Assembly: GCA_043803685.1 (NCBI GenBank)
Contig: JAZDJU010000031.1
Span: forward strand, 103,970 to 167,969
Direction: 5' to 3'
Origin: Candidatus Omnitrophota bacterium
GTDB lineage: Bacteria > Omnitrophota > Omnitrophia > Omnitrophales > Aquincolibacteriaceae
DNA: 64,000 bases
The position numbers and the translations under genes were made by a program. Under the pieces are notes generated by a model that did not search any database, was not told where the DNA came from, and saw nothing but the letters and a program-made list of their open reading frames with translations. The stretch's first letter is position 1; each line of letters begins with the position of its first letter. This document shows, one piece after another, positions 3,243-49,184 of this stretch.

Positions 3243-3264
3243 AAAAAGTTCCCTGAACAACAAC

Positions 3265-3340
3265 GTATCAGGGTATCAAAGTGTCCGAGTGTCATATTTT
3301 TAACGCTTTGACACGTTGATACTTTGACACATTGACACTT
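3265..3340. repeat. Octamer mirror-repeat hairpin (GTRTCA x4 / TGAYAC x4)
   Basis: gtatcagg gtatcaaa gtgtccga gtgtca ... ttgacacg ttgatact ttgacaca ttgacac; homologues at 7015-7090 and 12233-12301. Confidence 0.85.
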
Positions 3341-4556
3341 ATTTCTTGCCAAGCCCAAACGCCTTGTGGATCACTTTCGCGGCGAGCTTGCCCTTATCGC
3401 CGGCGACGACGACTGAGATCTTGATCTCCGAAGTCGAGATCATATCGATATTGATCTTGTTCTTGGCCAGGGTCGAGAACATCTTGGACGCGATACCGGA
3501 ATGAGAACGCATCCCGATCCCGACCACGCTGACCTTCGCGACGTTCTCGTCGCAGGTGACGTTCGTGGCGCCAACCTTCTTCATGGCCGCCTTGACGACC
3601 TTCATGGCCTTCACGAGCTCGTTCTTGAAGACGGTAAAAGAGATGTCGGTGGAATTCGTCTGCGTTTTGTTCTGAATGATCATATCCACGTTCACGTTCG
3701 CGTCCGCCAGGGTCTGGAAGACCTTGGCCGCCACGCCCGGGCGGTCCGAAACGCGGAACAGAGTGATCTTCGCCTCATCTTCAGCTAACGCGACACCGCT
3801 TACAACGACTTCTTCCATGGCCTTATTCTCCTTCGTGATAAGAGTTCCTTTGTGGTCGTTCTGGGAATTGCAGACCCAAATCGGCATGTTGAATTTTTTT
3901 CCGACTTCGATCGAACGCGAGTGCATGACTTTCGCCCCGAGCGACGCGAGCTCGAGGATCTCGTCATAGGTGACCTGATTCATTTTTTGCGCGTCCGGGA
4001 TCACGCGCGGATCCGCGGTGTAGATCCCGTCCACGTCCGTGTAGATCTCGCAATGTTTTGCCTTGAGGGCCACCGCCAACGCCACAGCGGTCAGGTCCGA
4101 ACCGCCGCGCCCGAGCGTCGTGATCTCGCCCGAGGGCGTCTGCCCCTGGAACCCGGCCACGATCACGATCTTTCCTGCGGACAACGCTTTCTTAATACGG
4201 TCCGCGCTAATGTTCTGGATCCGGGCCTTGCTGTGGAATTCGTCCGTGATGGTCCCCACTTGCGAACCCGTGAACGAGACCGCCTCGTGTCCCAATTTCT
4301 GGACCGCCATCGCCAAAAGCGCGATCGAGACCTGTTCCCCCGTCGAGAGAAGCATGTCCATTTCCCGGTCCTGAGGATCCTTGTTGATCTGATCGGCGAG
4401 CGTGATCAGGTCATCGGTCATGTCGCCCATGGCAGAAACCACCACCACGACCTTGTTCCCGGCTTTCTTGGTCTTGATCACACGTTGAGCGACCCTCAGG
4501 ATCTTTTCCGCATTGGCGACCGAAGAGCCGCCGTACTTCTGAACAATAAGTGACAT
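3339..4556 (-). CDS. lysC: Aspartate kinase
   Basis: MSLIVQKYGGSSV, TTLGRGGSD, two ACT domains; GAGGA RBS before ATG 4556. Confidence 0.96.
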   Translation of the reverse strand: MSLIVQKYGGSSVANAEKILRVAQRVIKTKKAGNKVVVVVSAMGDMTDDLITLADQINKDPQDREMDMLLSTGEQVSIALLAMAVQKLGHEAVSFTGSQVGTITDEFHSKARIQNISADRIKKALSAGKIVIVAGFQGQTPSGEITTLGRGGSDLTAVALAVALKAKHCEIYTDVDGIYTADPRVIPDAQKMNQVTYDEILELASLGAKVMHSRSIEVGKKFNMPIWVCNSQNDHKGTLITKENKAMEEVVVSGVALAEDEAKITLFRVSDRPGVAAKVFQTLADANVNVDMIIQNKTQTNSTDISFTVFKNELVKAMKVVKAAMKKVGATNVTCDENVAKVSVVGIGMRSHSGIASKMFSTLAKNKINIDMISTSEIKISVVVAGDKGKLAAKVIHKAFGLGKK

Positions 4557-6945: not shown

Positions 6946-7014
6946 AAAATTTGATTCCGTTATTTCCAGATTCGCTTTTTTTTTCTTCCACCAACTCCGA
7001 AACTGAATCCTTCC

Positions 7015-7090
7015 GTATCAAAGTATCACAGTGTCACAGTATCAGGGTTTGAGCACCTTGACACTTTGAGACTCTGACACCCCGACACTT
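7015..7090. repeat. Octamer mirror-repeat hairpin, second copy
   Basis: gtatcaaa gtatcaca gtgtcaca gtatca ... ttgacact ttgagact ctgacacc ccgacact. Confidence 0.85.
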
Positions 7091-7096
7091 ATTTCC

Positions 7097-12204: not shown

Positions 12205-12232
12205 CCTCACAAAAAGCCACACACCACGGTAA

Positions 12233-12301
12233 GTGTCATGGTATCAAGGTGTCAAAGTATCAAATCTTTGACACGTTGACACTTTTGACACTATTGACAC
12301 G
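12233..12301. repeat. Octamer mirror-repeat hairpin, third copy
   Basis: gtgtcatg gtatcaag gtgtcaaa gtatcaaa ... ttgacacg ttgacactt ttgacacta ttgacac. Confidence 0.85.
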
Positions 12302-12310: not shown

Positions 12311-13474
12311 ATGTCTAAAAAAATCTTCCTTGTTGCTTGCGAAGCCTCGGGCGACCTCCACGGCGCTCATCTGATCGACGAGATCCGGGAACTTTCCCCC
12401 GACACGGTTTTTTGCGGCGTGGGTGGCGCCAAGATGCAGGCCACCGGCATGCAGATCTTCAACGACATGACGAAGATCTTGGCCCTGGGTTTGGGCGATG
12501 TCCTCCGGAATTACTTCAAGTACCTCAAGATCTTTAATGAGACGATCGAGAACATCCGCCGCGAGAAACCTGACGCTGTGGTCGTGATCGATTCCCCGGC
12601 CTTCAATCTCCGGCTCGCGAAAAAGATCTCGGCTCTCGCGCCCGTCCTCTATTACATCTCCCCGCAGCTCTGGGCCTGGGGCAAGCGCCGGATCCACATC
12701 GTGAAAAAACACATCCGCGAAATGCTCGTGATCCTGCCGTTCGAGAAGGATTTCTATGAGAAGGAAGGGGTCGCCGTCAAGTTCGTGGGACATCCCCTGC
12801 TCGATGCGATCCCGGAACTTCCGGCCGCTGCAACCCTTCGCGCCGGGATCGGGATCACTCCGAACCAGAAAGCCATCGGACTTTTCTCGGGCTCGCGGGA
12901 AAAAGAAGTGAAACGCATCCTGCCGATCATGCTCCGGGCGGCTGTTCATCTTCAGAAAGAATTCCCCGAAGCCGTCTTTTTCATTTCAAAATCCTCGAAC
13001 GTGCGCCCTGAAGTTTATGACGCGCTCCTTCAAGGTCAGTCCCTTGTGACGCAATGTCCGGCTGTTCCTTTTTATGAACTGGTCAAAGCGATGGATTTCG
13101 CTTACGTGGCCTCCGGGACCGCGACGCTTGAGACCGCGCTTATCGGGACCCCGTTCTTTCTTCTCTATAAGGCTAGCTGGTCGACCTATTTCCTCGGCAA
13201 GCGCCTCATCAAAGTCCCCTACCTCGGACTCGTGAACCTTCTCGCGGACACCCGCGTGATTCCCGAGTTCATCCAGCAGGACGCCCACCCCGAAACACTC
13301 GCCCATGAAGCCAGGGTTTTTCTCCGAAGCCCGGAACTCCAGCAGAAGATGAAAGAGGAGTTCCGTCAGGTGAGGGAAAAACTCGGAGAAAAAGGCGCGA
13401 GCGCGCGAGCCGCCCGGGAAGTGACGGATTTTCTGGAGAATCCAGAAAAAAATCGTCATCCCCGAACGCTCTAA
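12311..13474 (+). CDS. lpxB: Lipid A disaccharide synthase
   Basis: ACEASGDLHG, IDSPAFN, SPQLWAW, FVGHPL, GSREKE, SGTATLE. Confidence 0.95.
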   Translation: MSKKIFLVACEASGDLHGAHLIDEIRELSPDTVFCGVGGAKMQATGMQIFNDMTKILALGLGDVLRNYFKYLKIFNETIENIRREKPDAVVVIDSPAFNLRLAKKISALAPVLYYISPQLWAWGKRRIHIVKKHIREMLVILPFEKDFYEKEGVAVKFVGHPLLDAIPELPAAATLRAGIGITPNQKAIGLFSGSREKEVKRILPIMLRAAVHLQKEFPEAVFFISKSSNVRPEVYDALLQGQSLVTQCPAVPFYELVKAMDFAYVASGTATLETALIGTPFFLLYKASWSTYFLGKRLIKVPYLGLVNLLADTRVIPEFIQQDAHPETLAHEARVFLRSPELQQKMKEEFRQVREKLGEKGASARAAREVTDFLENPEKNRHPRTL

Positions 13475-13585: not shown

Positions 13586-16500
13586 CTAGAAAAGCGAAAA
13601 TCCGTAAAGCTTCATATCGAGAGAGGACGAACCGGTCCCTTCCGTAACGAAAACGATCTCATCCACCAGCGGATATCCCGAAAGAATGAGGTCCGTATTG
13701 ACCGTCTTGACAGCTCCTCCGGTATTTTGCAGGTTCAGATATTGCGTTTTTACAATGATCAAATTACCAAAACTATCTCTCGCTTTATATTCGATCCTCG
13801 CATTGGGCACCGGCGTCAAAGAAGAATAACTGATCTGGAGCTGGCGAACATTGATGGAAAGATCATTAGTGATCGCCGCGACGCCCATGCCTTGAAAATT
13901 GCTGCTCGTAAGATGAAGGGCCCCTGAATCCCAACTCGCAGCGGCATTGCCTCCGTTCAGGGCAAACGTGGCGATCGGCCCTTTCAAGAGATCCGTCCCA
14001 AGGACATGATTGACGGAGAAATTCACGACCGTTCGATTTCCCGCCAGATCAGATTCTTCGATCGTAAGCGTATTCGCGCCTGTCACGAGATCCGTAAAAG
14101 TTTTCTGTTTTAGCGAACCGTCTAGAGTGTAATTCACCGTAATAGAAGACGAGGCGATCATCGCCGGAGTCCCGGGATCCAGTACCACGACGGGAGCAAC
14201 GGTATCCACCGTCACCTGATGGGTCACCGTGGTTGAATTCCCGGCCAGATCCTTCTCCGTAATGGATAACGTATTCGATCCTTCCGGAAGATCTGTAAAA
14301 AGTTTCGTCTTCGAAACTCCATCCACCGTGTAACTCACTGTCAGCGTCTTCGCCTTGATCAGGCCCGGGATCCCAGCATCCAGCACCACCACGGGGGGCG
14401 TGAAATCATTCTTGGGGATCTGTCTCATTTCACCCCCAGTACTGATCACCCCCATCATATCGCCGTAGGCGTACCACAGTTCGACCTCATCCGATCCATT
14501 GAGACTCATCCCGCTCAGGATGTTCCCTTCATAAAGACGAACCACTTCCCTTCCCGGGCGGAGATAATTCATTTCCGTGAACCATTCATTGATTGGACCG
14601 CTACCCGTCATTTTATAATACGCGTGAAACCCAATAGCGAGATTTCCGCCACGCGTGTAAATGAGATGGTATACGGGGGCTACCGGCATGGAAAGCAACT
14701 GCAGATCCGCCACATTCACCTGCGGCGCGTACTGCAGCAATAATGCCTCCAGATCCCCTCCCGTGTACTCCACGCCCACTTCCACTCCCGCAGGCGGCAC
14801 AAAGCGGGCGGCGGGCACGAGCGTCATGCTGGTGATCTTGTCGTTCGGATATCCCTGCGCGTCCGGGAACAGAACCACGGCATCGGTAATGTACCAGTAA
14901 AGATAGCTTTCGGGGATCGTGATCACGTACTCGCCGGGACCGGACTCCGTCGCCGGAAGGTCAAATTGAACACTGTAGGCCGGATCATTGCTCCCCGCGT
15001 GCTTCAGCTCAAGCTTCACGCCCGTGACCGGCGTTGAAGACTGATAGGTGATACGCAATTCGCGGTCGGAGGCCCGGACAGCTTCAGGAAGGTGCCAGGC
15101 GGTCCCTTTGAACCCGTTCCATTCGAAATTACCGCTCGTCCCGCTCGTGAGCGAGACCGGTGTCTGCGGATCCCAGATCGACTCGAGTTTCGATGTCAGC
15201 CCTTTATTTTCGAGATACCGGGTCATGGAAGCTCCTCCGGTCCCGGCCATCCCGAGCGTAAACGAAACCACGTTGTTGAATACCTGCTCTTTGACCACTT
15301 TGCCCGAACTCATGTTGATACCTTCCCAGAGACCGTGGCTTGTAATGAGCTCCGGATGCTCATTGATCAATCGCTGCAATAAGGCTTCGACCCCCTCAGG
15401 ACGGAACATGTACGCCGCCCCCAGGTTGTATGTCGAAGGCGTGGTCTCCGAGACCCCGTTCATGGCGATCTCGTTAATGCCAAGCGAAAAGTTATATTGA
15501 ATGCGGTCCGTATCGATGCTGTAGAACGTGAGGTCAAGCGGCCCGCTACCTTCGGAAGTCACGAAAACCACTTCGCTCAGATCGCCCAATACGCCGCTCT
15601 CGGGCAACTGAAGCGAAAGCGTGCGCACTTCCCCTCCTGTATTTTCCAGCGTCAGGTCCTGCACATACACGGTCGTCAGCACACCATCGATCTTCTGTTT
15701 GAATTCCAGCCTCGCGTTCGGCACCGCCGTCTGAGAAGAATACCGGATCTGCAACGCCGACCCTTCGAGCACGTACTTGCTGTTGTCGGTAAAAGCAACG
15801 CCGATTCCATTCGTGCTTCCGGCCGTCAGGTGAAAACTGCCGTCAGCCCCATAGCTCGGATTCACTACGTCCCCCTGCCAGCTGAATGCACTGACAGAGC
15901 CGCTCAAAAGATCATAAGAACCCACGTCATAGCTCGCCGACAAAAGCCCCGGCTGGTTGTTACGCTGAGCGTAATCGAGTTGCACGTCCGTGTAGGTCTC
16001 GAGCATCGCACGCAGATCCGGATCATCCGCTTCCGGCAACAAGAGCGCCGGCCAGTACATCTGGAAAGCACCGCTGAAAGGCTCAACAACGGTTCGGGTA
16101 CTGCCGTCCTGCATCGCGTAGTCGCTGACCGAGAAATAAAGCTTATTGTAAACACTCGCCGGAAACGCGTCGCCGTACTGCAAGATGAGGAAGAGGAGCG
16201 GACCCATACTTTCCGCTCCAAAAAGATCGACCGTCCCTTCCAGGTGACCATCCGAGATCACCATCGTCCGGGCGAACGTCTGGTTCGCGGCGTTATACAT
16301 GGCCACGTAGCCTGGCCGCTGGTTCTCAATGAAAGCGTCGATCTTGTCCAGAATGCCGCCGGAAGCGTGGACCGTCGCGTTGCCCGAAAGCGACGCGTCC
16401 AGGAGCGCGCCGTAAGCGACCGCAAGTCCCGCCGTCATGTTCGTGTTGTCCTCGAAACTGACCTGGCGGCCGTAAAGATCGTCCATCCTTTCCCAGTCAC

Positions 16501-19500
16501 CGTTGTAATAGCCGAGCCAGGGCAATAATCCCTGGTAGCCCAGCCTCTGTTGATCTTCGAGCAGATGGGTCATCATCACATCAAGCCGGCGGATCGCTTC
16601 CGCTTTTGAGATGGTAGAGGTCACAAGATCTCCCGCGGCGATCGTGGCGAGCAGATTCGCGTAAAACCCGAAGTTGGAGGGCTGAGTGATGCGGCGCTGG
16701 AGCCACCCCTCGAGCGGATATTCATGAGTCGATTCGACAAGGCCAAAATCGGTCTCTAAATAAAGCATGTTGATCTGCGTCAAAAGGTCGGCAGCGGTCG
16801 TGATCTCCCTGGGAATGGCCCGGTAAACAACAGCCCCGCGATCCTGCGCCGGATCTTGCCAAGCAACCTCCCCGTAATGAGCGGCCACAAAAGTTCCCGC
16901 GGTCTGCCAAACGCCTGAGCCATCGTCAAACTGAACCTCGTAACGGACTCCGCGCATCGCCTGATCGATCTTAAGCGACCACTGGTTCGCGGCGCTCGGG
17001 ACCTGCGTGATCACGGGTTCGACGAACCGGATCGCGGGCAGTTCCGGCAGGATCTCAAGCGTATTAAGATCAAAGCGAACGGTACGGATCGAACCGTCAT
17101 CTTCACGGACTGTGTAAGTCGCGATATTGTTCTGATACGTAACCGAAGTGGCAGCTCCATCGAACGTGATGTTCTGGTTTACGAGGAATGTTTTATTGAA
17201 CGTTAGCGAATCAAGACCGAGCGCGAGGACTGTCTGGCCTCCCGGCGCAACAACCGCATCGACCAGTGTAAAAGTCCCGCCCGCCGCACCCGGCGTTTCA
17301 TTCCCGAGACTTACGGTCCGAACGGCAGACGAATAATCGTTCCCTCCATACAAGCTATAGATATGGGCGTAGTACTGGCCCGAGGTCTGGTCATATTCCG
17401 GCTGAACCGCGAGGGACAGCACGTCGTTGCGATAAAACCCGGTTCCGGGAGTCACGAGCGTTAAATAGAAACTCGAAATAAATTCCGGGTTGAACGTGCT
17501 GATGCGGATCCCTGTGGAGGTGCGGATCACCGTGCCGCTGGGATAGGTCCAGTCCGTTTTGAGCATGACGTAATTGCTGTAATAGAGGATCTGCGTCAGA
17601 TCGCCTGCGACAGTCTGGGCCGTCCAGGGCTCACCGATCCGTTCCACGCGCGCCGTCCCTCCGCCTTCGTAGATCACTTTGCTACCATCCGGCGTCACGT
17701 CAAAGGTATCGGGAACGTCTCCGGCGCCGGAATAAAGAAGCGTGATCCCGCCGCTCGGAATATATTTCAGTTCGAGCCGGGAAATATCGCCGTCCTGTAT
17801 CACGCGGAAAGCGAAATTCGCGTTAGAGGTCGCCGGGACCCAAGGCGCCGCGGGAGGAATATCCACGAGGATCGAATCGGTAAAAACCTCTGAGATCAGC
17901 CCCGCCTTGTCCATGAGCTGGCAATGCACTTGCCGCGCACCGTTCCCCTCAGGAAGCGTGAACGACTGCGTTTCGCTGAACGCCGTCCACTCCGACCAGA
18001 TTGTTCCTTGATCGGTGGAAAAACGGACCTGATCGACGCCTGAACCGGCATCGGAACCAGTCAAACTGAAGGTCACTTCCGAAGACGTTGATGTCGAAGC
18101 GCCGTCATTGATCGAAAGCGTACCGACGGGCTTCACCGTATCCAAAAGCACGGTCACAGACGCGGACTCCGACCATTTTCCGGACCTATCCTGGAATTTC
18201 ACATACATTTTTTTGAGACCATCGCTTGCCGAAAAGATGACCGGCATGGAAGTGGCGTATGCCTGAGCCGCAGACCAATTGAGCCCATCCCCAGAAAAAC
18301 TCATCTGGCTCACCCCGGAACCGGCATCCGTTGCTGACAAATCCATCGTGGCAGCACTTTGCGTAATATACTGGGCACCCCCGTTGATCTTGATCGTTCC
18401 GGTGGGCGGCAGCGTGTCCAGAATGATGGACTTCGAATAAACCGCACTGGCGTTCCCGGCCTTGTCGTAATACTTCACAAAAACTTGCTTAGCCCCGTCC
18501 CCGTCCGTCAGAGTGAACGTCTTGGATGTTGCGTAAGCAACGGGCGTTGCCCAGTTCGTTCCATCTATCGAAAAACTCATCTTGCTTATGCCGCTCCGGC
18601 TGTCCGTCCCGGAGAGATTGAGCGTCACCGTCTGCGAAGAGGCATACACGGCACCCGAATTGATATTGAGCGAACCCGTCGGCGCTACCGTGTCCAAAGT
18701 CACGGTCACGGATGTCACCGCGGACCACCTGCCGACCTTGTCCTGGAATTTCACATACACTTTCTTCGCTCCATCGCCGGTCGCAAACGTCCACGCTTTT
18801 TGCGCCGCATAACTCTCCGCCGTAGTCCACGTCGTTCCGTTCGACGAAAAACTCATTTTACTTAGCCCCGAACCCGCGTCGGTTGCGGCAAGGTCCAGCG
18901 TCACGGCGGTCTGATTGATGTAGGTAGTCCCGCCGTTCACCTTGACCGTCCCCGCAGGAGGAAGCGTGTCCAGAATGATGGACTTCGAATAAACGGCGCT
19001 CACGTTCCCGGCTTTGTCGTAGTACTTCACATAAACGGTCTTGTTGCCATCGCCGGAAGGAAGCGTGAATGTTTTTGAAGTCGCGTAGGCCACGGCCGAA
19101 CTCCAGGTCGTGCCATTCGTCGAAAAACTCATCTTAGAGATCCCGCTTCCGGAATCCGCGCCGGAGAGGTTCAAGGTCACGGCCGTGGAAGTGGCGTAAA
19201 GAGCCCCTGAGTTAATATTGACCGCGCCTGTCGGAGGCGTTGTATCCAGAAGGATCGACCTGGAATACACAGCGCTGGCATTTCCGGCCTTGTCGTAATA
19301 CTTCACATAAACTTTTTTAGTCCCATCCCCGTCCGCCAGAGTGAACGACTTGGAAGTCGCGTAAGCGACGGGTGTGGTCCAGTTCGTCCCATCCGTCGAA
19401 AAACTCATCGTGTTTATGCCACTCCGGCTGTCCGTCCCGGTAAGATTCAACGTCACCGTCTGCACCGCGGTATAAAGCGCTCCCGAATTGATATTGATCG

Positions 19501-20971
19501 TTCCGGTCGGCTTGACCGTATCCAAAGTGACGGTGACCGATGCGGCAGAAGACCACCTGCCGACCTTATCCTGGAATTTCACATACACTTTCTTCGCTCC
19601 GTCGCCGATCGCGAACGTCCACGCTTTTGTTGCGGCGTAGTTCTCCGCCGTGGTCCATGTCGTTCCGTTCGTCGAAAAGCTCATTTGGCTGAGTCCCGAG
19701 CCCGCATCGGTAGCCGAGAGAGTCAGTGTCGTGGCAGTCTGATTAATGTAGGAGGCCCCACCATTCACCTTGACCGTCCCCACAGGCGGAAGCGTGTCCA
19801 GCATGATCGAACTCGAGAACGGTTCGCTCTCATTCCCGGCTTTATCGTAATACTTTACGTAAACGGTCTTGCTGCCATCGCCGGAAGGAAGCGAGTAAGT
19901 TTTTGAGGTCGCGTAGGCCACGGGCGCACTCCAGGTCGTACCGTTCGTCGAAAAACTCATGCTGCCGATCTCACTCCCGCTGGCTGTTGCCGAAAGATTC
20001 AAGAGAACGATTTGTGACGTCGTGTAAACAGCGCCCGAGTTGATAGTGATCGTTCCGGTCACAGGAGGGATCAGTTCGTCGTAGGTGATCTTCAGTCTTG
20101 CGTTGGCGAGTTGGATCTTGGGTATCGCGCCGTCCGGCGCGGCAGAAAAACCCGTCCAGGTTTTTCCGGAACGAAGATCACTAAGAACGGCTTGTGTGAC
20201 GTCCGCAGAGATCGTCTGTGAAACGTTCCTTGCGAATGACTTTTGAGTCATGCTTGCCGCTAGGGTGGAGACCCCGGTGTAATGCTTCGCGGCTCCGCCG
20301 GACAAGGTGGGATAAAGCCCGTCTTCGTTCGCTTGCATATCATAGATCGAAAAGTTATAAGCCCCTGTCGTAGTCGAAACAGCGTCAAAAACGAGCTCGA
20401 CCTTCCGGATCTTCTCGATATCGGCCCCCGCCGCGGACCATTCAACAAGGCTGACTTCCATGAATGCCCGGTAGTTGGACAGATCATAGACGGGTCCGGT
20501 TCTCTGAATGAATGCCCCATCCCGGTAATAATAACTGGTGTAATAGACCGGATTCCCGTAGGAATCAGGGTAATAATGCCCACTCAGAGCCTGAACCGTT
20601 TTCGAACTCACCGCTCGGAGCTCCAGGGATACCTCCCGGAAAAGTGGCGCTAGCTCACTCATCGTAGCTGCGGGAGCCTGGATGCTGGGGGGTACGGCAC
20701 TATCTTTCGAAAGACCACTGGCCGCTGATAAGGGGAAACTTGACTGAACCGCTACTCCCGAAGGAATATCATTCTCTAAAACTGGAGGAACCTGCGCATT
20801 CGCCTGCTCCAGCGTCATGGCCGGCACGAATTGCTGCGTTTCGTTCAGGACCCATTCACTGCCGGCCGCGAAGGAAACAGGCACAGAGATCCCGCTGAAA
20901 ATAAAGCAAAGGGTTGTCGAAAGCGCGACAAGCTTGAAAGAGGATCGCTTCACTGGGAAGGAATGCTTCAC
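13586..20971 (-). CDS. Giant secreted/surface protein (2461 aa): eight Ig-like repeats, glucoamylase-like/GH144-like domain, three CBM-like modules, two further Ig domains
   Basis: GGAGG RBS and GTG start, signal peptide, DTxPPxG...DKAGN repeats, ITQPSNFGFY / GLLPW / SGAFQMYWP segments. Confidence 0.85.
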   Translation of the reverse strand: MKHSFPVKRSSFKLVALSTTLCFIFSGISVPVSFAAGSEWVLNETQQFVPAMTLEQANAQVPPVLENDIPSGVAVQSSFPLSAASGLSKDSAVPPSIQAPAATMSELAPLFREVSLELRAVSSKTVQALSGHYYPDSYGNPVYYTSYYYRDGAFIQRTGPVYDLSNYRAFMEVSLVEWSAAGADIEKIRKVELVFDAVSTTTGAYNFSIYDMQANEDGLYPTLSGGAAKHYTGVSTLAASMTQKSFARNVSQTISADVTQAVLSDLRSGKTWTGFSAAPDGAIPKIQLANARLKITYDELIPPVTGTITINSGAVYTTSQIVLLNLSATASGSEIGSMSFSTNGTTWSAPVAYATSKTYSLPSGDGSKTVYVKYYDKAGNESEPFSSSIMLDTLPPVGTVKVNGGASYINQTATTLTLSATDAGSGLSQMSFSTNGTTWTTAENYAATKAWTFAIGDGAKKVYVKFQDKVGRWSSAASVTVTLDTVKPTGTININSGALYTAVQTVTLNLTGTDSRSGINTMSFSTDGTNWTTPVAYATSKSFTLADGDGTKKVYVKYYDKAGNASAVYSRSILLDTTPPTGAVNINSGALYATSTAVTLNLSGADSGSGISKMSFSTNGTTWSSAVAYATSKTFTLPSGDGNKTVYVKYYDKAGNVSAVYSKSIILDTLPPAGTVKVNGGTTYINQTAVTLDLAATDAGSGLSKMSFSSNGTTWTTAESYAAQKAWTFATGDGAKKVYVKFQDKVGRWSAVTSVTVTLDTVAPTGSLNINSGAVYASSQTVTLNLSGTDSRSGISKMSFSIDGTNWATPVAYATSKTFTLTDGDGAKQVFVKYYDKAGNASAVYSKSIILDTLPPTGTIKINGGAQYITQSAATMDLSATDAGSGVSQMSFSGDGLNWSAAQAYATSMPVIFSASDGLKKMYVKFQDRSGKWSESASVTVLLDTVKPVGTLSINDGASTSTSSEVTFSLTGSDAGSGVDQVRFSTDQGTIWSEWTAFSETQSFTLPEGNGARQVHCQLMDKAGLISEVFTDSILVDIPPAAPWVPATSNANFAFRVIQDGDISRLELKYIPSGGITLLYSGAGDVPDTFDVTPDGSKVIYEGGGTARVERIGEPWTAQTVAGDLTQILYYSNYVMLKTDWTYPSGTVIRTSTGIRISTFNPEFISSFYLTLVTPGTGFYRNDVLSLAVQPEYDQTSGQYYAHIYSLYGGNDYSSAVRTVSLGNETPGAAGGTFTLVDAVVAPGGQTVLALGLDSLTFNKTFLVNQNITFDGAATSVTYQNNIATYTVREDDGSIRTVRFDLNTLEILPELPAIRFVEPVITQVPSAANQWSLKIDQAMRGVRYEVQFDDGSGVWQTAGTFVAAHYGEVAWQDPAQDRGAVVYRAIPREITTAADLLTQINMLYLETDFGLVESTHEYPLEGWLQRRITQPSNFGFYANLLATIAAGDLVTSTISKAEAIRRLDVMMTHLLEDQQRLGYQGLLPWLGYYNGDWERMDDLYGRQVSFEDNTNMTAGLAVAYGALLDASLSGNATVHASGGILDKIDAFIENQRPGYVAMYNAANQTFARTMVISDGHLEGTVDLFGAESMGPLLFLILQYGDAFPASVYNKLYFSVSDYAMQDGSTRTVVEPFSGAFQMYWPALLLPEADDPDLRAMLETYTDVQLDYAQRNNQPGLLSASYDVGSYDLLSGSVSAFSWQGDVVNPSYGADGSFHLTAGSTNGIGVAFTDNSKYVLEGSALQIRYSSQTAVPNARLEFKQKIDGVLTTVYVQDLTLENTGGEVRTLSLQLPESGVLGDLSEVVFVTSEGSGPLDLTFYSIDTDRIQYNFSLGINEIAMNGVSETTPSTYNLGAAYMFRPEGVEALLQRLINEHPELITSHGLWEGINMSSGKVVKEQVFNNVVSFTLGMAGTGGASMTRYLENKGLTSKLESIWDPQTPVSLTSGTSGNFEWNGFKGTAWHLPEAVRASDRELRITYQSSTPVTGVKLELKHAGSNDPAYSVQFDLPATESGPGEYVITIPESYLYWYITDAVVLFPDAQGYPNDKITSMTLVPAARFVPPAGVEVGVEYTGGDLEALLLQYAPQVNVADLQLLSMPVAPVYHLIYTRGGNLAIGFHAYYKMTGSGPINEWFTEMNYLRPGREVVRLYEGNILSGMSLNGSDEVELWYAYGDMMGVISTGGEMRQIPKNDFTPPVVVLDAGIPGLIKAKTLTVSYTVDGVSKTKLFTDLPEGSNTLSITEKDLAGNSTTVTHQVTVDTVAPVVVLDPGTPAMIASSSITVNYTLDGSLKQKTFTDLVTGANTLTIEESDLAGNRTVVNFSVNHVLGTDLLKGPIATFALNGGNAAASWDSGALHLTSSNFQGMGVAAITNDLSINVRQLQISYSSLTPVPNARIEYKARDSFGNLIIVKTQYLNLQNTGGAVKTVNTDLILSGYPLVDEIVFVTEGTGSSSLDMKLYGFSLF
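17860..20068 (-). repeat. Eight intragenic repeats of about 276 nt (92 aa) with an 828-nt higher-order duplication
   Basis: Repeats 1-2-3 match 4-5-6; the DTLPP starts of repeats 2 and 5 are 828 nt apart. Confidence 0.9.
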
Positions 20972-21104: not shown

Positions 21105-21488
21105 TTATTTTTTTAAAGGAGTAGAGGGTGCGAGCTGCCACGGGAATTCTGGCTCGAGGATGGGCTTATAAGAACACGGCCAAGGGAACGGGAAAGTCAC
21201 CATTTCATAAATTCCCACGCTAGCGCGACCTACGGCATAAAGAGAACCGCGACATAATCCTGCGACCCAACTCGGAGGAAATGTGTCCGTGCGGACTTCC
21301 TTGGAGAGTTCATTCGAGATCTCGAACGGGCAGAGGGCCACGTTCAGAAATCCGCGCTGGAGCTTCCGGAGAGACGTTCCCTCCCCCTGGATCTGGGCTT
21401 CAGGGGCGACTTCCCCCGCCGCCATCACGGGAAGCGAGAACGCCAGAAGCACGAACAACGCGATCAGGACCGTATAGAGTCTCTTCAT
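21105..21488 (-). CDS. Exosortase-system-associated protein, TIGR04073-like
   Basis: Signal peptide; RKLQRGFLNV...RASVGIYEMVTFPFP. Confidence 0.75.
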   Translation of the reverse strand: MKRLYTVLIALFVLLAFSLPVMAAGEVAPEAQIQGEGTSLRKLQRGFLNVALCPFEISNELSKEVRTDTFPPSWVAGLCRGSLYAVGRASVGIYEMVTFPFPWPCSYKPILEPEFPWQLAPSTPLKK

Positions 21489-21633
21489 AACGCGGTTAAT
21501 CTAACATTGAAGGCAAAACAACGCCAGCTAGAAATTACATTAACGGCCACGCGCCACGATACACGCTTTCCCCTCGCCCTTGGCCCGCTCCTGCCCGCCG
21601 AAGCAGTGAGGCGGGAACGGGCAATCTTTTGAT

Positions 21634-21676
21634 GCCTGTCCCCTTTTGGGTGACTGTCTCCTGTCTTACCTGTCTT
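21634..21676. repeat. GACTGTCACCTGTCTT-family repeat, copy A
   Basis: GCCTGTCCCCTTTTGGGTGACTGTCTCCTGTCTTACCTGTCTT; near-identical to 24612-24645. Confidence 0.8.
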
Positions 21677-21842
21677 TGCAGTTCTCTGGACAACCTAACT
21701 CCGAAGGAATATGCTCAGACGAACGCAAACCAACCCTCCGAAACACTAACTTAGCATTGGCACAATGAACGGGGGGAGGTCAGCGGATCCCTATGATTCA
21801 AAGGTCGATTCATAATTTGCCTCTATAAACGATGGAGATCAT

Positions 21843-22742
21843 ATGAAGCAACGCAGGATCTTTAGGCTCGTACTTTCAACATTGCTTTTGATAGGTGGGC
21901 TTGGGCTTTCGCTTGTCCTTGCGCAGGCGGGTCCTGATCAGAGCATTGAGAGGGTCAAAACAGCGACTTCTGCTGACGGCACAGCGATCCATTATTACGA
22001 GCATGGGCAAGAGGGGCCGACACTTGTGTTTGTTCACGGATGGATTTGTGACGCAAGCTACTGGAGAGAGCAAGTCGAGTATTTCAAGAAGAAGTATCAC
22101 ATGGTTCTGATCGATCTGGCTGGGCATGGTCGTTCCGGGAGTGAGCGTGAGAATTACACCATGGAAACCTTTGGCCAGGATGTGAAAGCTGTTGTCGAAA
22201 GTGTCGGGGCAAAGAAGGTAGTCTTGATCGGTCATTCCATGGGTGCCCTTGTGATCGCACAGGCGGCTCTCTTGATGCCAGAGAAGGCGATGGGATTGGT
22301 CGCGGTGGATGACCTTCAGAACGTAGAGTATCCCCTGGGAGAAACACAGTTCAAGGAGATGACCACGCCCTTCAAAAAAGATTTCAAACAGGGCGTCAGA
22401 GATTTCGTCACAGATATGCTGCGTTCTGACAACTCGCCTGTCAATGAATGGGTGATCTCGGATATGTCTTTGGCTGATCCCAAGGTTGCGCTCAACGCAA
22501 TGAACGGATCTTTAGGCGGGTATCTGACAGGTGATGTAGCCAAGTTGTTTGATGGATTGGATGTTCCGGTGGTGGCTGTGAATAGCGACCTTTGGCCAAC
22601 CGATGTCGAAGCGAACAGACGGCATATAAAAGATTTTGAGCTGATCGAGTTGGACGGACTGGATCATTTTCTGATGCTTAAAGCGCCTGAGCGTTTTAAC
22701 CCTGCGCTTGAACAAGCTGTTAAAATGATACTTAAGAAATAA
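21843..22742 (+). CDS. Secreted alpha/beta hydrolase
   Basis: Signal peptide, HG motif, DLAGHG, GHSMG nucleophile elbow, C-terminal His. Confidence 0.92.
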   Translation: MKQRRIFRLVLSTLLLIGGLGLSLVLAQAGPDQSIERVKTATSADGTAIHYYEHGQEGPTLVFVHGWICDASYWREQVEYFKKKYHMVLIDLAGHGRSGSERENYTMETFGQDVKAVVESVGAKKVVLIGHSMGALVIAQAALLMPEKAMGLVAVDDLQNVEYPLGETQFKEMTTPFKKDFKQGVRDFVTDMLRSDNSPVNEWVISDMSLADPKVALNAMNGSLGGYLTGDVAKLFDGLDVPVVAVNSDLWPTDVEANRRHIKDFELIELDGLDHFLMLKAPERFNPALEQAVKMILKK

Positions 22743-22805
22743 ACAAAACGGGACGTCCGGCGGGAGACGTTAGGGTTTAGCTCCTCCCCGCAAGCTGCAG
22801 CCAGC

Positions 22806-23057
22806 TTACAAATGGAATTGGCTTTTTTTGCGCTCGAGGGTACGCTGGAATTTGTCTTCGACGTCCTGGATCGAATCCTTCAACGCTGCGAAGATCTTCG
22901 CCACCTGGTCGCCATTATAAGAATACTGGGAGGTCGCCAGATTCCCGATCAGGCGGATCTTATCGAGCGTCGCCGCGACTCTCTGCTCCGCCAACCGCTT
23001 GAACCGCGCTTCCTTGGATTCATTAGGTACGTTGCTTGCGTCTTCATTTTCTTCCAC
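22806..23057 (-). CDS. Small conserved hypothetical protein (83 aa)
   Basis: AAAGGAG RBS and GTG start; ESKEARFKRLAEQR...IGNL...YSY...KIF pattern resembles small island-associated proteins. Confidence 0.75.
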   Translation of the reverse strand: MEENEDASNVPNESKEARFKRLAEQRVAATLDKIRLIGNLATSQYSYNGDQVAKIFAALKDSIQDVEDKFQRTLERKKSQFHL

Positions 23058-23125
23058 GTGAGTCTCCTTTATGGATCCGCTTCTTAGCCGGGACCGCTGT
23101 AAAATATCACACCCGATCGTGCCCT

Positions 23126-23438
23126 GAAAACAGAAAAGGCTTAGCGATGGGGTCAGGAAGCTTGGGCCTCACTACTTGCCAAGCGCATCAACCCAAAGCT
23201 AAGCCTACCGCTGAGACCGCTGGAAGGGCGCTCGCTTCCTCACCCCCGGCCCTGAGGACCGTGGCCAGTCGCGCGTACTTTCTGGCGTCAGCGATCTCAA
23301 AAAACGTAAGCCCAAGATCGGCGCCCCGCTTTGATCGCGGTCAAGCCAGCCGTAACTCAGGCTCCGTACGACGCCAAGAGGGTCCCGGTTCCGTCGGGGG
23401 TTCATCGCCCCCAAGCCAGATCCACCATCTCTTGGCCT
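23126..23438 (-). ncRNA. Candidate structured RNA of unknown class
   Basis: Upstream TTGCTT-N17-TACAGT, multiple stems, 3' stem followed by U-rich tract, no credible ORF. Confidence 0.45.
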
Positions 23439-23502
23439 GATCTGACTGTAGCCGACGAGTGTTCAAAAAGCAAGACCCCCGCGAAAAATAGGTGAAATAT
23501 TT

Positions 23503-24420
23503 TCAGCAACAACAGGTGTTTGGTGGACGATCGACAAAGGAGATCCCGGCAAAACGCCGGCGAATGCCGCGCTCAAAAGTCCCGGCCGCGTGTCCGAAAA
23601 TAATCGCCAAACCATGCCGCATGCCCGGCGCGATCTTGTATCTTTCCCTGAACTCCCGACTCGTATGAGCCAGCATGGGAACCACCGTTCCGATCATACA
23701 CGAACCAAGACCCAGGCTTTCCGCAGCGATCATGGCATAAGTACACGCGATCCCGGCGTCGGCCGGATCTTCGGAACACGCAAAGATCATCGCGAGCGGC
23801 GCATCGTAAAACATGAGGTCCTTCCCCTGTGCTCGACCGTGGGTGAGTTCCTTATAGATCGGCACGACCAACTCACGCATACTGCGGTGCTCTTCTTTCG
23901 ACATAAAAGGACGCAGCAGCCAGACACCGGCTTTCGAGAATAACCATGACATTTTCCTCACAGCGTCCAGGAAATCGAAAGCAAAGGAACGGACCGCTTC
24001 CTTGCCGTCGAGAACAACGACCTTCACAGTCGAGGGCGGAAGACCCGCAGGGGCCTGCTGTGCGGCTTCAAGGATCTTTTCCGTGATGTCACGCGAAACC
24101 GGTTGATCCGAAAACTTACGAACGCTCCGCCGTGATACCAAAAGGCGGAACAAGGCGTCATAGGTCGGGGGTTTCTCCTTGGAAAAGCGGAGTACATCCT
24201 GCCGTCCGATCCCCTCCGCTTCCACATGAATGGCTTCCACAGGACAAATGGCCGCGCAATGACCACACGTGAGACATCCCCAGGAATCTTTCTTCCCGCC
24301 CCTCACCTTAACCGATTCCAATTCAAGATAGGCGGTGGGACAGCCTTCCACACACAACCCGCAAAGATTACATTGATCATTGACGATGATCTCTACTTTT
24401 TTTCCGTAAATCGTCGGCAT
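23503..24420 (-). CDS. Nitroreductase-family protein with N-terminal 4Fe-4S ferredoxin domain
   Basis: Two CxxCxxCxxxCP motifs, SRRSVRKF, AAESLGLGSC. Confidence 0.93.
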   Translation of the reverse strand: MPTIYGKKVEIIVNDQCNLCGLCVEGCPTAYLELESVKVRGGKKDSWGCLTCGHCAAICPVEAIHVEAEGIGRQDVLRFSKEKPPTYDALFRLLVSRRSVRKFSDQPVSRDITEKILEAAQQAPAGLPPSTVKVVVLDGKEAVRSFAFDFLDAVRKMSWLFSKAGVWLLRPFMSKEEHRSMRELVVPIYKELTHGRAQGKDLMFYDAPLAMIFACSEDPADAGIACTYAMIAAESLGLGSCMIGTVVPMLAHTSREFRERYKIAPGMRHGLAIIFGHAAGTFERGIRRRFAGISFVDRPPNTCCC

Positions 24421-24578
24421 GCGATCCCCCCTTCGTTCCCCAAAGATCCTGAAAAAGAATTCCGTCCGCTGTGCATTTTAAAATATCCCCTGTTCCATAG
24501 CTACCATTTGTTCTTTCGCCTCCCGTTCCGTTCATGTATACGGGACGGCGTCTGATTTACTGCTAAGAGGCAACGCAA

Positions 24579-24645
24579 AAAAGGGGACAGGCTACTTTTT
24601 GAAAAAAAGTAGCCTGTCCCCTTTTGGGTGACTGTCACCTGTCTT
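24579..24645. repeat. GACTGTCACCTGTCTT-family repeat, copy B, with long palindrome
   Basis: AAAAGGGGACAGGCTACTTTTT / AAAAAGTAGCCTGTCCCCTTTT then GGGTGACTGTCACCTGTCTT. Confidence 0.85.
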
Positions 24646-24656
24646 AACCGGCGTCT

Positions 24657-24779
24657 TTAACGTCTGAGATACGTCACTGTGACGGTGGGAGCGTCGGACG
24701 AAAGCGATGCCGCAAAAGCATCCGCGACCCACACGCTACAAGCCGCCAAAACGAGTAAAAACACGACTATCTTCTTCAT
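24657..24779 (-). pseudogene. 40-aa ORF, essentially a signal peptide; probable truncated gene
   Basis: AAAGGA RBS; MKKIVVFLLVLAACSVWVADAFAASLSSDAPTVTVTYLRR*; stops about 12 bp from repeat copy B. Confidence 0.5.
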
Positions 24780-24896
24780 GGATTCCTTTGATTCAGACTT
24801 AATGGGATTTCCCTAAAAAACAAGGAGGGAGTTAAGCCGTCGGAAAGATGCCCTACGAAGTTCCTTCTGTCAAGGGTACCAAGACAAGACGCCTGT

Positions 24897-25006
24897 CCCG
24901 TGTGAAGACGAGACCTTCAAGGTCTCGCGAGCCTGCCAGAAACATGGGGTTCAGGCCTTTCGGCGCCTGCCCGCCAGCGCTGTGTGGCGGGACTGTCACC
25001 TGTCTT
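24897..25006. repeat. GACTGTCACCTGTCTT-family repeat, copy C (long form)
   Basis: About 110 bp near-identical to 26401-26509. Confidence 0.9.
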
Positions 25007-25112
25007 TATTCGATTTTAAGCCGACTTTGGCCGCGCGGCCAAAGTTGTCCCACCCCATCACTCCATTGGATCTAACGCCTCCCTGCGGACGGCGGCCGGT
25101 TTATTCACTTTC

Positions 25113-25745
25113 TCAGCGTATAAAGTTTGTGAAGATACGTTCTTCTCTCTCCGGGAAAGGGATCCCGGCCTTGGTTCCCGCCTCTTTACATTTCAAGAAC
25201 CACGCCATATTTCTCCCCAAGGTGCGCATCGTCTGCAAACCCTCCAGATCTTTTCGGACATCGTCGGGAGTGTGCCCGTGGACCATGTTCCAATATTGAG
25301 ATGAGATGACCGGCATCTGTGAGATGGTGAAATATTTGTTGAGTTGGTCGAATGTCGCCGTCGTCCCGGCTCTTCGGGCAGAGACAACGGCAGCGGCTGG
25401 TTTTAAATAAAAGGACTGCCTTCCGGAGAGGAGGTCTGCAAAGAACACGCGATCCATAAAGGAGGTGATGGCGCCGCCCGCAGACGCATAATGCACGGGA
25501 GAACCGAACACAAACCCATCCGCGTTTTTAGCGATATCCAGAAAATCATTCACCCGGTCGGAAAAAACACAACGCTTCAGCTCCGCGCATTTCCGGCAAG
25601 CGATGCATCCGGACAAAGGCGTTCTGCCGATTTGAAATATTTCCGTTTCAACCCCGCCGGCATTCAATGTTTTCGCCACTTCCTCCAATGCCGTATAAGT
25701 ACATCCCTTTTCATTCGGACTTCCATTCACTAACAATACTTTCAT
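25113..25745 (-). CDS. Flavodoxin-family NADPH-dependent FMN reductase / iron-sulfur flavoprotein
   Basis: NGSP..GCT, CIACRKC..C, GSPVHY. Confidence 0.92.
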   Translation of the reverse strand: MKVLLVNGSPNEKGCTYTALEEVAKTLNAGGVETEIFQIGRTPLSGCIACRKCAELKRCVFSDRVNDFLDIAKNADGFVFGSPVHYASAGGAITSFMDRVFFADLLSGRQSFYLKPAAAVVSARRAGTTATFDQLNKYFTISQMPVISSQYWNMVHGHTPDDVRKDLEGLQTMRTLGRNMAWFLKCKEAGTKAGIPFPEREERIFTNFIR

Positions 25746-25794
25746 GTAGGCTCCTTTGCGCGCGCTTGCCGGTGTTGCCTATGAAGTGGATACC

Positions 25795-26394
25795 TTATTT
25801 CACCATCTTTATTTCACGCAACCATTCAGACACTTTGGACTGAGCAGATCTTACAGTTCTTCCACGGACCGCAAGACCGTCGAGAAGAGTCGATCTGGGG
25901 CAAAGCTGCGACAGATCAAAGACACTTTGTCCCAATCCGCTCCCTTCGTGCGTACAAAAAGGCACGAGGGTTTTTCCCGAAAGGTCATGTTTTGACAAAA
26001 AAGCTTTCACGGCCATCGGATAAGTTTCCCACCAACTCGGGTAGCCGATAAAGATCACATCATAGGCATTGACGTCTTGAACGTCGGATCGAAGTTCCGG
26101 CCGAAAGTCGGAATGGAGTTCTTTTTTTGCTTGTTCAACGAGATCATCATAATTCTCCGTGTAAGGAGCCACCGTCTGGATCTCGAAAATATCCCCGCCA
26201 ACCCTCTCGTGGATCTGACTCGCGATCTCGCGGGTATTCCCCGTATGCGAAAAATAAGCGATCAACACCTTTCTCGTATTCCCGGTCCCATGATCGAATT
26301 TTTCTTCCTTGGCGGCGAAGCTTACTGGGCTCGCCGCGGCTATCAGCATCAAGAACGTCATGATCATCGGACATGCTAGCTTCAATCTCTTCAT
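25795..26394 (-). CDS. Flavodoxin with signal peptide
   Basis: YFSHTGNT, IGYPSWW, PFCTHEGSG; start at MKRLKL. Confidence 0.9.
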   Translation of the reverse strand: MKRLKLACPMIMTFLMLIAAASPVSFAAKEEKFDHGTGNTRKVLIAYFSHTGNTREIASQIHERVGGDIFEIQTVAPYTENYDDLVEQAKKELHSDFRPELRSDVQDVNAYDVIFIGYPSWWETYPMAVKAFLSKHDLSGKTLVPFCTHEGSGLGQSVFDLSQLCPRSTLLDGLAVRGRTVRSAQSKVSEWLREIKMVK

Positions 26395-26400
26395 AGTTCT

Positions 26401-26528
26401 CCCGTGCGAAGACGAGACCTCAAAGTCTCGCGAGCCTGCCAGAAACATCGGTTTCAGGCCTTTTCGGTGCCTGCCCGCCAGCGCTGTGTGGCGGGACTGT
26501 CACCTGTCTCTGTATTGTCACCTGCCTT
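26401..26528. repeat. GACTGTCACCTGTCTT-family repeat, copy D (long form)
   Basis: Direct repeat of copy C plus an extra TGTCACCTGCCTT. Confidence 0.9.
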
Positions 26529-26535
26529 GGCAGAA

Positions 26536-27267
26536 TTAAATATCCCTAAATGTAAAAAACGGCAATCTCACCTTACTCATACCGGGCACAACCAATGTCG
26601 TTTTTTCCATGTCTTTTAAGCTTTTTACTCCTAAATAATTCCTATGGAATAGAGCTAAATAATGACCAAAAAATCGCTGCATGCATTTTGTAATCCTTAG
26701 TATTTCTTCGAAGATTTGGTTGGAAGCTTGTTGTAAATTTTTGTTATGAAATTTTTTCATCATTGCCATTAACAGCATATGCTCACCTAGCTGATAAAAA
26801 CAGTTGCCCTGGGCCTCATTCAAGTAGATTTCAAATTCGCCATACTCCTTCAGAGAAGCTAGCTCTTCTTCAACAACGTTTGGGTCCAAGTGATAAGCGA
26901 ATTCATTTCGAATCGTTTCGATTATGTTAGAGCCCTTAAAATAAGCCTTAATTTCTTTTTCTTCTTTTATTTGGTATTTAATACCCATTTTCCTTGAATA
27001 AAACCCCGATCGGATTAACTGCCAACCCTCATACAGCAACCCCGCCAGATTGCGCATTATGAAAGTCGTCTGGATATGCCCTGCGCTCAATTTCAGCTTG
27101 CCTCTTCTAGGGCTGCGAAAAGAATACAAAAGAAGTTTTTGACTAATTCCTACATCTGTCAAAAAATTCATCGCTCTTATATAGAAAATACGTTCATCTT
27201 TCGGGCATTTGGAAAAACGCTTTTTTGAAATTTTGATTTTATATATATCAATTTTATTAGAAGCCAT
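26536..27267 (-). CDS. AT-rich hypothetical protein, possible HEPN-domain RNase
   Basis: Helical-looking sequence with RNEFAYH (Rx5H); visibly AT-rich. Confidence 0.55.
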   Translation of the reverse strand: MASNKIDIYKIKISKKRFSKCPKDERIFYIRAMNFLTDVGISQKLLLYSFRSPRRGKLKLSAGHIQTTFIMRNLAGLLYEGWQLIRSGFYSRKMGIKYQIKEEKEIKAYFKGSNIIETIRNEFAYHLDPNVVEEELASLKEYGEFEIYLNEAQGNCFYQLGEHMLLMAMMKKFHNKNLQQASNQIFEEILRITKCMQRFFGHYLALFHRNYLGVKSLKDMEKTTLVVPGMSKVRLPFFTFRDI

Positions 27268-27636
27268 TCAAAGAATTACCCCAATGTATTTTCAAATAAG
27301 AAGGAATTTCTTCTCAAAAAAAGGGCCCTATTTCAAACAGCAACCAGGACGCCATCCCGAGGAAGAGGTTAACTTACCCCCGTACAAACAACATCAAGCC
27401 CAAAATAGAAATAGCATCTAGGGATAGTGTTGGGCAAAGTATACGCCTCTTGTTAATTTCCGACTATATTTCTTCGTGGAGGCGAAAAGCGGGGTGAGAC
27501 ACGCTAAGGAGGCCGAGAGCCAGGGTTTTTCATCGAGGCCGACGCTCGCGAGTGCGGTCATGCCTCGGTGGGGCATGACAAACGTTGGCGAGACACACTT
27601 TTCGCCGAAGCGTTTTGCTTTGGGAAAACGTCTGGA

Positions 27637-42395: not shown

Positions 42396-42531
42396 AGCAA
42401 AAAACGAGGCCCCTTTTAACGGGATTTTCATTTTATTAAATACGGGACGGTGGCCAGTCAATGAAGTTGTTAGCTATCGGTTATTAGCTATTGTCTATAG
42501 TCCAGGGTCTTCAGGCTGTCGCTGCAGTCTG

Positions 42532-46230: not shown

Positions 46231-46516
46231 GCGGAAAGATTATCACGACATTGTCTATTAATCAATATTGAATTGATTTTAATGCATTCATCGATTCGCT
46301 ACGCTCTGAGCGTAGCGGCAGAGAGGGACTGCGATCGAAGTGAGTCTTGGGATGGGACGGCGCGCTGACTCGCCGTCTTTGCTGTGAGAGACCTGAAGCT
46401 TTCAGCTATGCGCTATAGTCTGTGGTCTTCAGTCTGGAGCTTCAAAGGAGAATCCCCGGAATTCCGGAAGCTGTTGGGTGGAGTGGCATCTTGTCGACAG
46501 TCAACGCGCATCCGGT

Positions 46517-47022: not shown

Positions 47023-47059
47023 AAACGATCGAAAAGATCAGGATGCCGAAAGAGGCGGC
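47023..47059. repeat. 37-bp direct repeat of the 3' end of gene 48816-49184 (partner at 48818-48854)
   Basis: AAACGATCGAAAAGATCAGGAT(G/C)CCGAAAGAGGCGGC, one mismatch. Confidence 0.9.
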
Positions 47060-47070
47060 TATTTCTACCT

Positions 47071-47160
47071 CTCCCTGCGAAGACGAGACTTTCAATGTCT
47101 CGCGAGCCTGCCAGAAACATCTGGTTTCAGGCCTTTTGGGTGACTGTCACCTGTCTTACC
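47071..47160. repeat. GACTGTCACCTGTCTT-family repeat, copy E
   Basis: Matches copies C/D except for their internal hairpin; ends GGGTGACTGTCACCTGTCTTACC. Confidence 0.9.
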
Positions 47161-48815: not shown

Positions 48816-49184
48816 TCAAACGATCGAAAAGATCAGGATCCCGAAAGAGGCGGCGACCAGCCCGAGAAGCCGGATCACCAGGACCGGCAGTTCGCTGTAG
48901 TGAACGAGAAAAGCCTTGAGCTTCTCCAGATCACTGGCGAACACGATGATGCCGCTTAAAAGGAAAAGCACCCCCACCGCCACCGTCGCCACCGGCACCA
49001 GGCTCCCCGGCGCGCAGAGAAGAAGCGCCAGCCCGAGCAAGGACCGGACCACCCCCGCCCAGTAAATGCGCTTCCCCTCTTTCACGAAAGCGAAGATCTT
49101 TTGCGTGAACTTCGGCGAAGCAAAGATCGTGATCCCCAAACCCACAATGACCAGCCCGACCAATTTCACCAGCACGATCAACAT
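48816..49184 (-). CDS. Four-TM hypothetical membrane protein
   Basis: AAGGAGG RBS; four hydrophobic segments. Confidence 0.8.
   Translation of the reverse strand: MLIVLVKLVGLVIVGLGITIFASPKFTQKIFAFVKEGKRIYWAGVVRSLLGLALLLCAPGSLVPVATVAVGVLFLLSGIIVFASDLEKLKAFLVHYSELPVLVIRLLGLVAASFGILIFSIV

Follow-up and report, generated by a model that had tools for sequence, protein, structure and literature searches.

Oriented repeats in an Omnitrophota accessory island are solo ends of a predicted TIRtron and probably not dedicated cassette sites

A 64,000-nucleotide stretch of a Candidatus Omnitrophota genome (GenBank assembly GCA_043803685.1, contig JAZDJU010000031.1, positions 103,970 to 167,969; hereafter the window) carries five copies of an oriented repeat in and near an island of unrelated genes, which raises the question whether genes are captured here in the manner of an integron, without an integrase. 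Integron cassette arrays, and the clusters of attC sites lacking integron integrases (CALINs), consist of unrelated small genes in one orientation with a repeat behind several of them, and the cargo found here is of the kind typical for integron cassettes. A preliminary description of the window proposed an integron-analogous capture system based on hairpins resembling repetitive extragenic palindromes (REPs), served by an HUH enzyme, a REP-associated tyrosine transposase (RAYT), or a recombinase acting in trans. Judged by its sequence, this repeat forms one end of a transposable element, a further member of a described class, and the cargo mostly moves without it, which speaks against a novel system of that kind.

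The 16-nt core of the repeat lies on the plus strand at 21652, 24630, 24991, 26495, and 47142 (copies A to E; Table 1), and a sixth, partial duplicate with 3 mismatches lies at 26513. By chance, a mean of 0.31 cores would be expected, and none of 100 shuffles reached 6, which bears out the five same-orientation copies first described; the positions at which these were said to start (21634, 24579, 24897, 26401, and 47071) are the left edges of composite units, with the cores further to the right. The whole assembly to which the window belongs (G000; 2.89 Mb in 133 contigs, 91% complete) holds 8 core matches at up to 2 mismatches, 5 of which are copies A to E. All five copies represent one double-end unit, GCCTGTCCCC-N5-GGTGACTGTCACC-TGT, which is restricted to a single region of G000, and the hairpins claimed for the repeat are present. 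Many of the GTDB matches of this motif belong to Omnitrophota, and the double end had 0 matches in viral contigs. Within the window, there were no Rfam matches at the gathering score (one miRNA-type chance match fell on the hairpin of copy B), and ARAGORN detected neither tRNA nor tmRNA.

Comparison with other genomes of the genus shows the repeat to be the terminal inverted repeat (TIR) of a predicted TIRtron, an element in which a gene for a Y1/HUH tyrosine transposase lies between inverted ends. Exact copies of the palindrome GGTGACTGTCACC were detected in 9 of the 20 genomes of the genus (41 in G002, 12 in G008, and 0 to 7 in each of the other 18), and a reversed control gave 0 matches. 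Both G002 and G008 contain a Y1_Tnp gene (loci L109 and L115, respectively) flanked by inverted copies of the double end, each end reading G(C/A)CTGTCCCC-N5-GGTGACTGTCACC; the G002 ends continue with TGT, like copies A and B. Two more Y1 loci, L157 and L169, are likewise flanked by inverted copies. The proteins of these four loci form one clade (support 100/99 in a tree of 24 rows), for which L157 and L169 are not independent support, as they were retrieved via the motif. The L109 protein has HFH at residues 62-64 and a tyrosine at 122. Proteins of the L109/L115 type are 200-205 amino acids long and match only Y1_Tnp in Pfam; L109 and L115 have no match to NF033573 (IS200-family TnpA), and the score for NF047646 is 67-71, below its cut-off of 80. 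A Y1 gene flanked by the repeat, one of the things that the preliminary description had named to look for, is thus present in congeners and not in the window, where, as it had noted, neither a transposase nor intI is visible. Its suggestion of an HUH/RAYT enzyme or recombinase in trans can be narrowed accordingly: the cognate protein is an HUH/Y1 enzyme, flanked by the same end in congeners.

Away from the transposase gene, the ends are scattered as singles, dimers, and clusters. A site behind dprA illustrates the different states: G008 has a full TIRtron there and G005 a single palindrome, and in G000 the place is taken by an unrelated gene. The palindrome was present at only 2 of 30 Y1 loci found with Pfam (L109 and L115), and many of the other loci are flanked by different inverted or palindromic ends of their own. 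More generally, the genus contains many Y1 clades, mostly each with its own palindromic end family (L097-L123), and orthologous intergenic spaces hold different palindromes in different species.

TIRtrons and their TIR-associated tyrosine transposases (TIRYTs) were described by Di Nocera et al. (2013; PMC3733652) as Y1 genes between long inverted repeats that contain a GGGGWSAS motif. Like the elements described there, the present ones have partly self-complementary double ends that occur as singles, dimers, and clusters, and the motif is satisfied by GGGGACAG on the minus strand of copies A and B, being interrupted in copy C and worn in copies D and E. Unlike them, the window contains solo ends only, which cluster in an accessory island and are combined in nested fashion with two further mini-repeats. 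Quentin et al. (2018; PMC6006769) equate TIRYT with subclass 2.1 of TnpA-Y1, which shares the lack of GTAG REPs and the end consensus with the elements studied here. That subclass has a C-terminal helix-turn-helix (HTH) domain (Bac_DnaA_C, HTH_23, or HTH_28), however, which Pfam did not detect in L109 or L115, so that membership of subclass 2.1 is not established. REPs and the bacterial interspersed mosaic elements (BIMEs) that accompany RAYTs (PMC3733652; Bertels et al., 10.1101/119735) are similar in being short palindromes located just behind gene ends, in forming mosaic composites, in sometimes supplying a stop codon or lying in frame inside genes, and in having a single-copy transposase. 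They differ from the present repeat in that the latter has no GTAG/CGTC tag, lies inverted around its gene, and comes with a protein below the NF047646 cut-off. IS200/IS605 elements differ as well, as the ends here are symmetric inverted repeats rather than asymmetric hairpins.

Three of the five copies are not intact. M1, a 56-bp two-hairpin unit, is placed within the CCCC run of copies C, D, and E, and M2, a 25-bp hairpin, within GGTG-ACTG of copies C and D. Since copies C, D, and E are thus one end with M1, and in copies C and D also M2, inserted, the direct repeats of about 110 bp reported earlier around two flavodoxin genes are a BIME-like mosaic; they are 94% identical over 111 bp, and the genes that they bracket encode an FMN reductase and a flavodoxin. 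The shared nested inserts suggest common descent or local amplification, and copies C, D, and E are likely to share descent. The composite of end, M1, and M2 was found again in G008 in another context, and end plus M2 in G004. M1 also occurs as solo copies, one of them inside a gene, and the inner-end dimer type seen in copy B occurs at 10 sites in G000. A further mini-repeat, M3, follows the stop codons of the hydrolase and FMN-reductase genes and belongs, as an end, to a different Y1 element (L112). We considered M3 as a possible attC site and rejected it, given its small size and its occurrence at the flanks of a different Y1 gene.

The 6-kb stretch around copies A to D is an accessory island. 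Between the copies lie genes for a hydrolase, an 83-amino-acid protein, an Fe-S nitroreductase, a 40-amino-acid open reading frame (ORF), an FMN reductase, a flavodoxin, and a 243-amino-acid protein. Gene content does vary among relatives between conserved anchors, as the preliminary description had suggested checking: of the 16 gltD loci fetched, 5 have a TIGR04073 gene at a distance of 11-822 bp from gltD, and none carries an island gene. Similarly, the difference in base composition noted there is real, with a GC content of 0.48-0.55 in 5 of the 6 island genes measured and 0.355 in the 243-amino-acid gene, against 0.58-0.60 in gltB and gltD. The label "HEPN-like" found no support: the 243-amino-acid protein has no Pfam or NCBIfam match and only an atlas lead of 0.85. 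As for precise junctions, some copies do lie 4-25 bp from module borders, and the left border of the island is within about 100 bp of copy A, but the right border and the pieces between copies A and B have no copy.

We consider it probable that the copies are solo TIRtron ends that were likely placed behind the 3' ends of genes, likely copied locally, and likely used as opportunistic breakpoints, rather than dedicated cassette sites. By analogy with IS200/RAYT chemistry, a TIRYT would once have been active in this lineage or in a donor, leaving solo ends behind gene 3' ends through HUH-type single-strand cleavage and rejoining. Other mini-repeats would have inserted into one such end, and the composite, to judge from the inserts shared by copies C, D, and E, would have been copied locally. 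The ends may then have acted as break or recombination points as genes came and went, with rearrangement possibly proceeding via short direct repeats of any family.

The distribution of ends in congeners argues for this account. At 55 congener sites, with genes called by a simple, purpose-made gene caller, 12 ends occupy the space between direct neighbors in the gene order of G000, 5 lie within two genes (3 of them inside a gene), and 9 lie between genes that are apart; a further 21 have an accessory flank, and 8 were unscorable. In G002, 11 of 29 sites are cargo-free between adjacent genes. Orientation was scored at 33 sites, after dropping in-gene, mixed-orientation, contig-end, and TIRtron sites. 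It tracks transcription, as it does for copies B to E, at 19 of 26 co-directional sites, among them 8 of 9 cargo-free ones, sites that are not mutually independent, and at 13 of 14 other GTDB loci (18 scored, 14 unscorable). As 48 of the 56 genes in the window are on the minus strand, the shared orientation of the copies requires no array. Randomly oriented copies between conserved genes had been named in advance as evidence against capture, and this is borne out in part: copies do lie cargo-free between conserved genes, with an orientation that is biased, not random.

The cargo points the same way. The interval between copies A and B consists of four pieces that no end separates, and three of these pieces also occur individually in other places. 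No TIRtron end was found at 19 metagenome loci of the hydrolase, at 5 FMN-reductase or 6 flavodoxin loci from a search of 401 genomes, at 4 HTH-AbiEii or 3 ACT loci read by eye, or at 2 homologues of the 40-amino-acid gene. Inward-facing pairs of ends around cargo other than Y1 genes were not seen in the loci mapped, a search that was not exhaustive. On both sides of some cargo homologues there are direct repeats that belong to other families (L213, L267, and L269), and the HTH-AbiEii pair is, together with copy E, enclosed by 37-bp direct repeats (47023-47059 and 48818-48854) of the 3' end of a neighboring gene. Bracketing by short repeats therefore looks general, and not specific to the TIRtron end.

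The strongest competitor is dedicated capture, the model of the preliminary description with its enzyme now identified. A Y1 enzyme, in trans or in a donor, would cut out single-stranded units of a gene plus its end and insert them, so that TIRtron ends would be working junction sites at which one TIRYT, or several with ends of their own, would stack such strands into oriented, integron-like arrays without intI. Several observations favor capture over opportunistic breakage. Four leftward modules each have one end behind them, as cassettes have attC. The homology limits of the 40-amino-acid module (24653-24874) lie 8 bp from copy B and 17 bp from copy C, and downstream DNA missing from the window is shared by two congeners. 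In G008, the hydrolase gene is bracketed by two same-orientation ends; it is 82% identical to that of the window, and a clade of both was rejected (approximately unbiased test, p 0.011, run after a first hydrolase tree had been seen and with recombination possible). This rejection suggests two arrivals, such that the two hydrolases may have come separately to lie beside a TIRtron end. Of 9 loci of a kinase gene, 2 have this end behind it, and the gene that comes next differs between the two. The five double ends of the 2.9-Mb assembly all lie within 25.5 kb, for which the chance under a uniform distribution is about 3e-8. A further point weighs against opportunistic deposition and against dedicated capture alike: the cognate transposase is absent from G000 (91% complete and in 133 contigs), whose three Y1 genes show at most 34% identity to it in tblastn and all have other ends. 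Other observations fit capture as well: copy D ends just ahead of an ATG, a small gene follows an end in 1 of 4 full-length loci and once more as a 5' fragment, and runs of same-orientation ends occur in the accessory islands of L193 (G002) and L149.

Even so, we regard dedicated capture as unlikely. Ends without cargo in conserved neighborhoods show the same orientation bias, the A-B pieces lack ends, nested inserts break up copies C, D, and E, and cargo homologues are mostly without an end. Nor does the repeat bound every mobile unit at a fixed distance. Copies B, D, and E were said to begin 8-12 bp past a minus-strand stop codon, and this is so for copy B (11 bp, from the 40-amino-acid ORF) and copy E (12 bp), but not for copy D, which lies 25 bp away (7 bp only if measured from the partial duplicate); copy C is 106 bp past a stop, and copy A faces a gene start, with no stop. 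The GGGAG of copy D lies 4 nt ahead of the flavodoxin ATG and is a candidate ribosome-binding site.

Less likely still is the arrival of the island in one piece from a relative rich in ends, in which case the ends would have been present from the outset and would have had no role in its assembly. The missing cognate enzyme, the confinement of the double end to one region, and the recurrence of the end-M1-M2 composite in G008 would all fit such an arrival, but in the loci fetched no congener has the block, or even any two island genes together. In addition, copy E lies 20 kb off, beyond gltBD and carAB, and homology limits fall near copies B and C.

That the palindromes are host regulatory elements, such as terminators or protein-binding sites kept behind genes, seems very improbable. 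They fold into hairpins and mostly lie behind gene 3' ends, and an RNA-level role has been suggested for REPs (PMC3733652). Against this, exact copies range from 0 to 41 within the genus and are most numerous where the transposase is present, some lie inside genes, and orthologous intergenic spaces carry unrelated sequence; the palindromes may have a secondary effect on transcripts.

A degenerate CALIN whose attC sites are no longer recognizable seems the least probable of these readings: the few GTTAG motifs that follow M3 repeats are offset by M3 being the end of another Y1 element, by the repeat being a transposon end that shows no R/L-box architecture on inspection by eye and also lies cargo-free in conserved operons, and by the lack of any match over the TIGR02249 (IntI) cut-off in G000. 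None of 66 genomes of the family gave an IntI match at E ≤ 1e-40, a search in which the positive control was also silent.

TIRYT enzymes are widespread, and the accounts of them in PMC3733652 and PMC6006769 that we drew on give neither mechanism nor role, the former also being silent about the borders of accessory genes; no study of TIRYT chemistry or TIRYT-mediated gene capture was found in a literature search that left subscription papers outside, and the term TIRYT itself turned up in only two works there. The present case offers a defined enzyme-end pair (L109/L115 and the double end), a single site in its empty, solo, and full states, and natural modules that are tightly bracketed, which makes mobilization of neighboring genes by TIRtron ends testable in vitro. 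Such mobilization would explain the heavy shuffling of single genes in a lineage in which no IntI was found. If the ends do capture genes, Omnitrophota would have an integrase-free equivalent of the integron; otherwise, the repeats are transposon relics of the ordinary kind, and searches for cassette arrays are misled by them.

Table 1. Repeat copies, mini-repeats, and accessory genes of the window.
Feature	Position	Strand	Remarks
M2 mini-hairpin (CCTGCCCGCC...GGCGG)	21590-21614	+	Beside copy A
Copy A	21634-21667	+	Solo TIRtron end: inner GCCTGTCCCC and outer palindrome, one mismatch; matches L109 and L115 ends
Alpha/beta hydrolase gene	21843-22742	+	Mobile; relatives in many unrelated contexts
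M3 repeat, worn	22745-22775	+	After hydrolase stop; more worn copies near 24543 and 25087
83-amino-acid gene, without family	22806-23057	-	Five congener loci, other neighbors
Conserved non-coding element	23112-23490		65-74% identity in four other genomes, context differs each time; not part of the repeat
4Fe-4S/nitroreductase gene	23503-24420	-	
Copy B	24579-24645	+	Inner-end dimer hairpin 24579-24625, complete TIRtron end 24612-24645
40-amino-acid ORF (24657-24779) and upstream promoter-like region	24657-24874	-	Similarity to congener spans 24653-24874
Copy C	24891-25006	+	TIRtron end interrupted by M1 (24901-24956) and M2 (24966-24990)
NADPH-dependent FMN reductase gene	25113-25745	-	
Flavodoxin gene	25795-26394	-	
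Copy D	26397-26528	+	TIRtron end interrupted by M1 (26405-26459) and M2 (26470-26494)
Copy D core; partial core duplicate	26495-26510; 26513-26528	+	
243-amino-acid gene, AT-rich, without family	26536-27267	-	Right island border; no repeat copy on upstream side
Copy E	47068-47157	+	TIRtron end interrupted by M1 alone (47076-47132)
HTH and AbiEii-family gene pair	47170-48512	-	Ends 12 bp from copy E

Among the smaller features of the island, the 40-amino-acid ORF was considered as a truncated gene, which was rejected because two homologues stop at identical residues. The conserved element of about 380 bp at 23112-23490 has no Rfam match and a single-sequence z of -1.76; a consensus fold of five sequences has 91 pairs, 12 of them with two-sided changes, making the element a candidate for an unnamed structured RNA or mobile element. 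In other hosts, the same hydrolase as in the island is found beside or between copies of a different repeat of about 30 bp (L213, L207, L216, L222, and L223), and in L208, L214, and L222 directly behind what by eye appear to be tRNA 3' ends, possibly reflecting the stacking of cassettes at tRNA ends. Congeners have a set of small genes in common whose order changes one gene at a time, with varied repeats or none at the joints (L183 and L276-L289).

The surroundings of the island show further insertions. At the same gltD site in G005 (L050, 3120-3990), two small paralogous genes are enclosed by direct repeats of 45 bp, along with M3 and a further palindrome; this is an independent insertion at the hotspot of the window. 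A gene for a 2,461-amino-acid protein with OmpL47-type repeats (13586-20971) separates the gene at 12311-13474 from the TIGR04073 gene, two genes that are direct neighbors in G005, and is a second insertion beside the island. Next to the gltD stop, a 130-bp repeat (27478-27610) has many copies of 80-91% identity across the genus; G000 has one further copy, and in G007 a copy occupies this very site.

Other repeats were seen as well. Around accessory genes further along the window there is a 123-bp repeat (92% identical) with shorter copies (52930-53052, 56284-56323, and 57383-57541), and similar DNA occurs in several congeners. Copies of M1 lie on contig C72 of G000 (about 21200-21280), in a target that by eye resembles what we take to be a tRNA T-arm, and on C98 (54426-54470), in what is presumably a ubiX-like gene. 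Degenerate units of 7-8 bp, inverted relative to one another, form intergenic runs at 3264-3345, 7014-7095, 12230-12293, 42486-42526, and 46404-46444; runs of this sort also lie on either side of the gene that follows dprA on C79, a gene whose product presumably resembles a four-helix-bundle protein.

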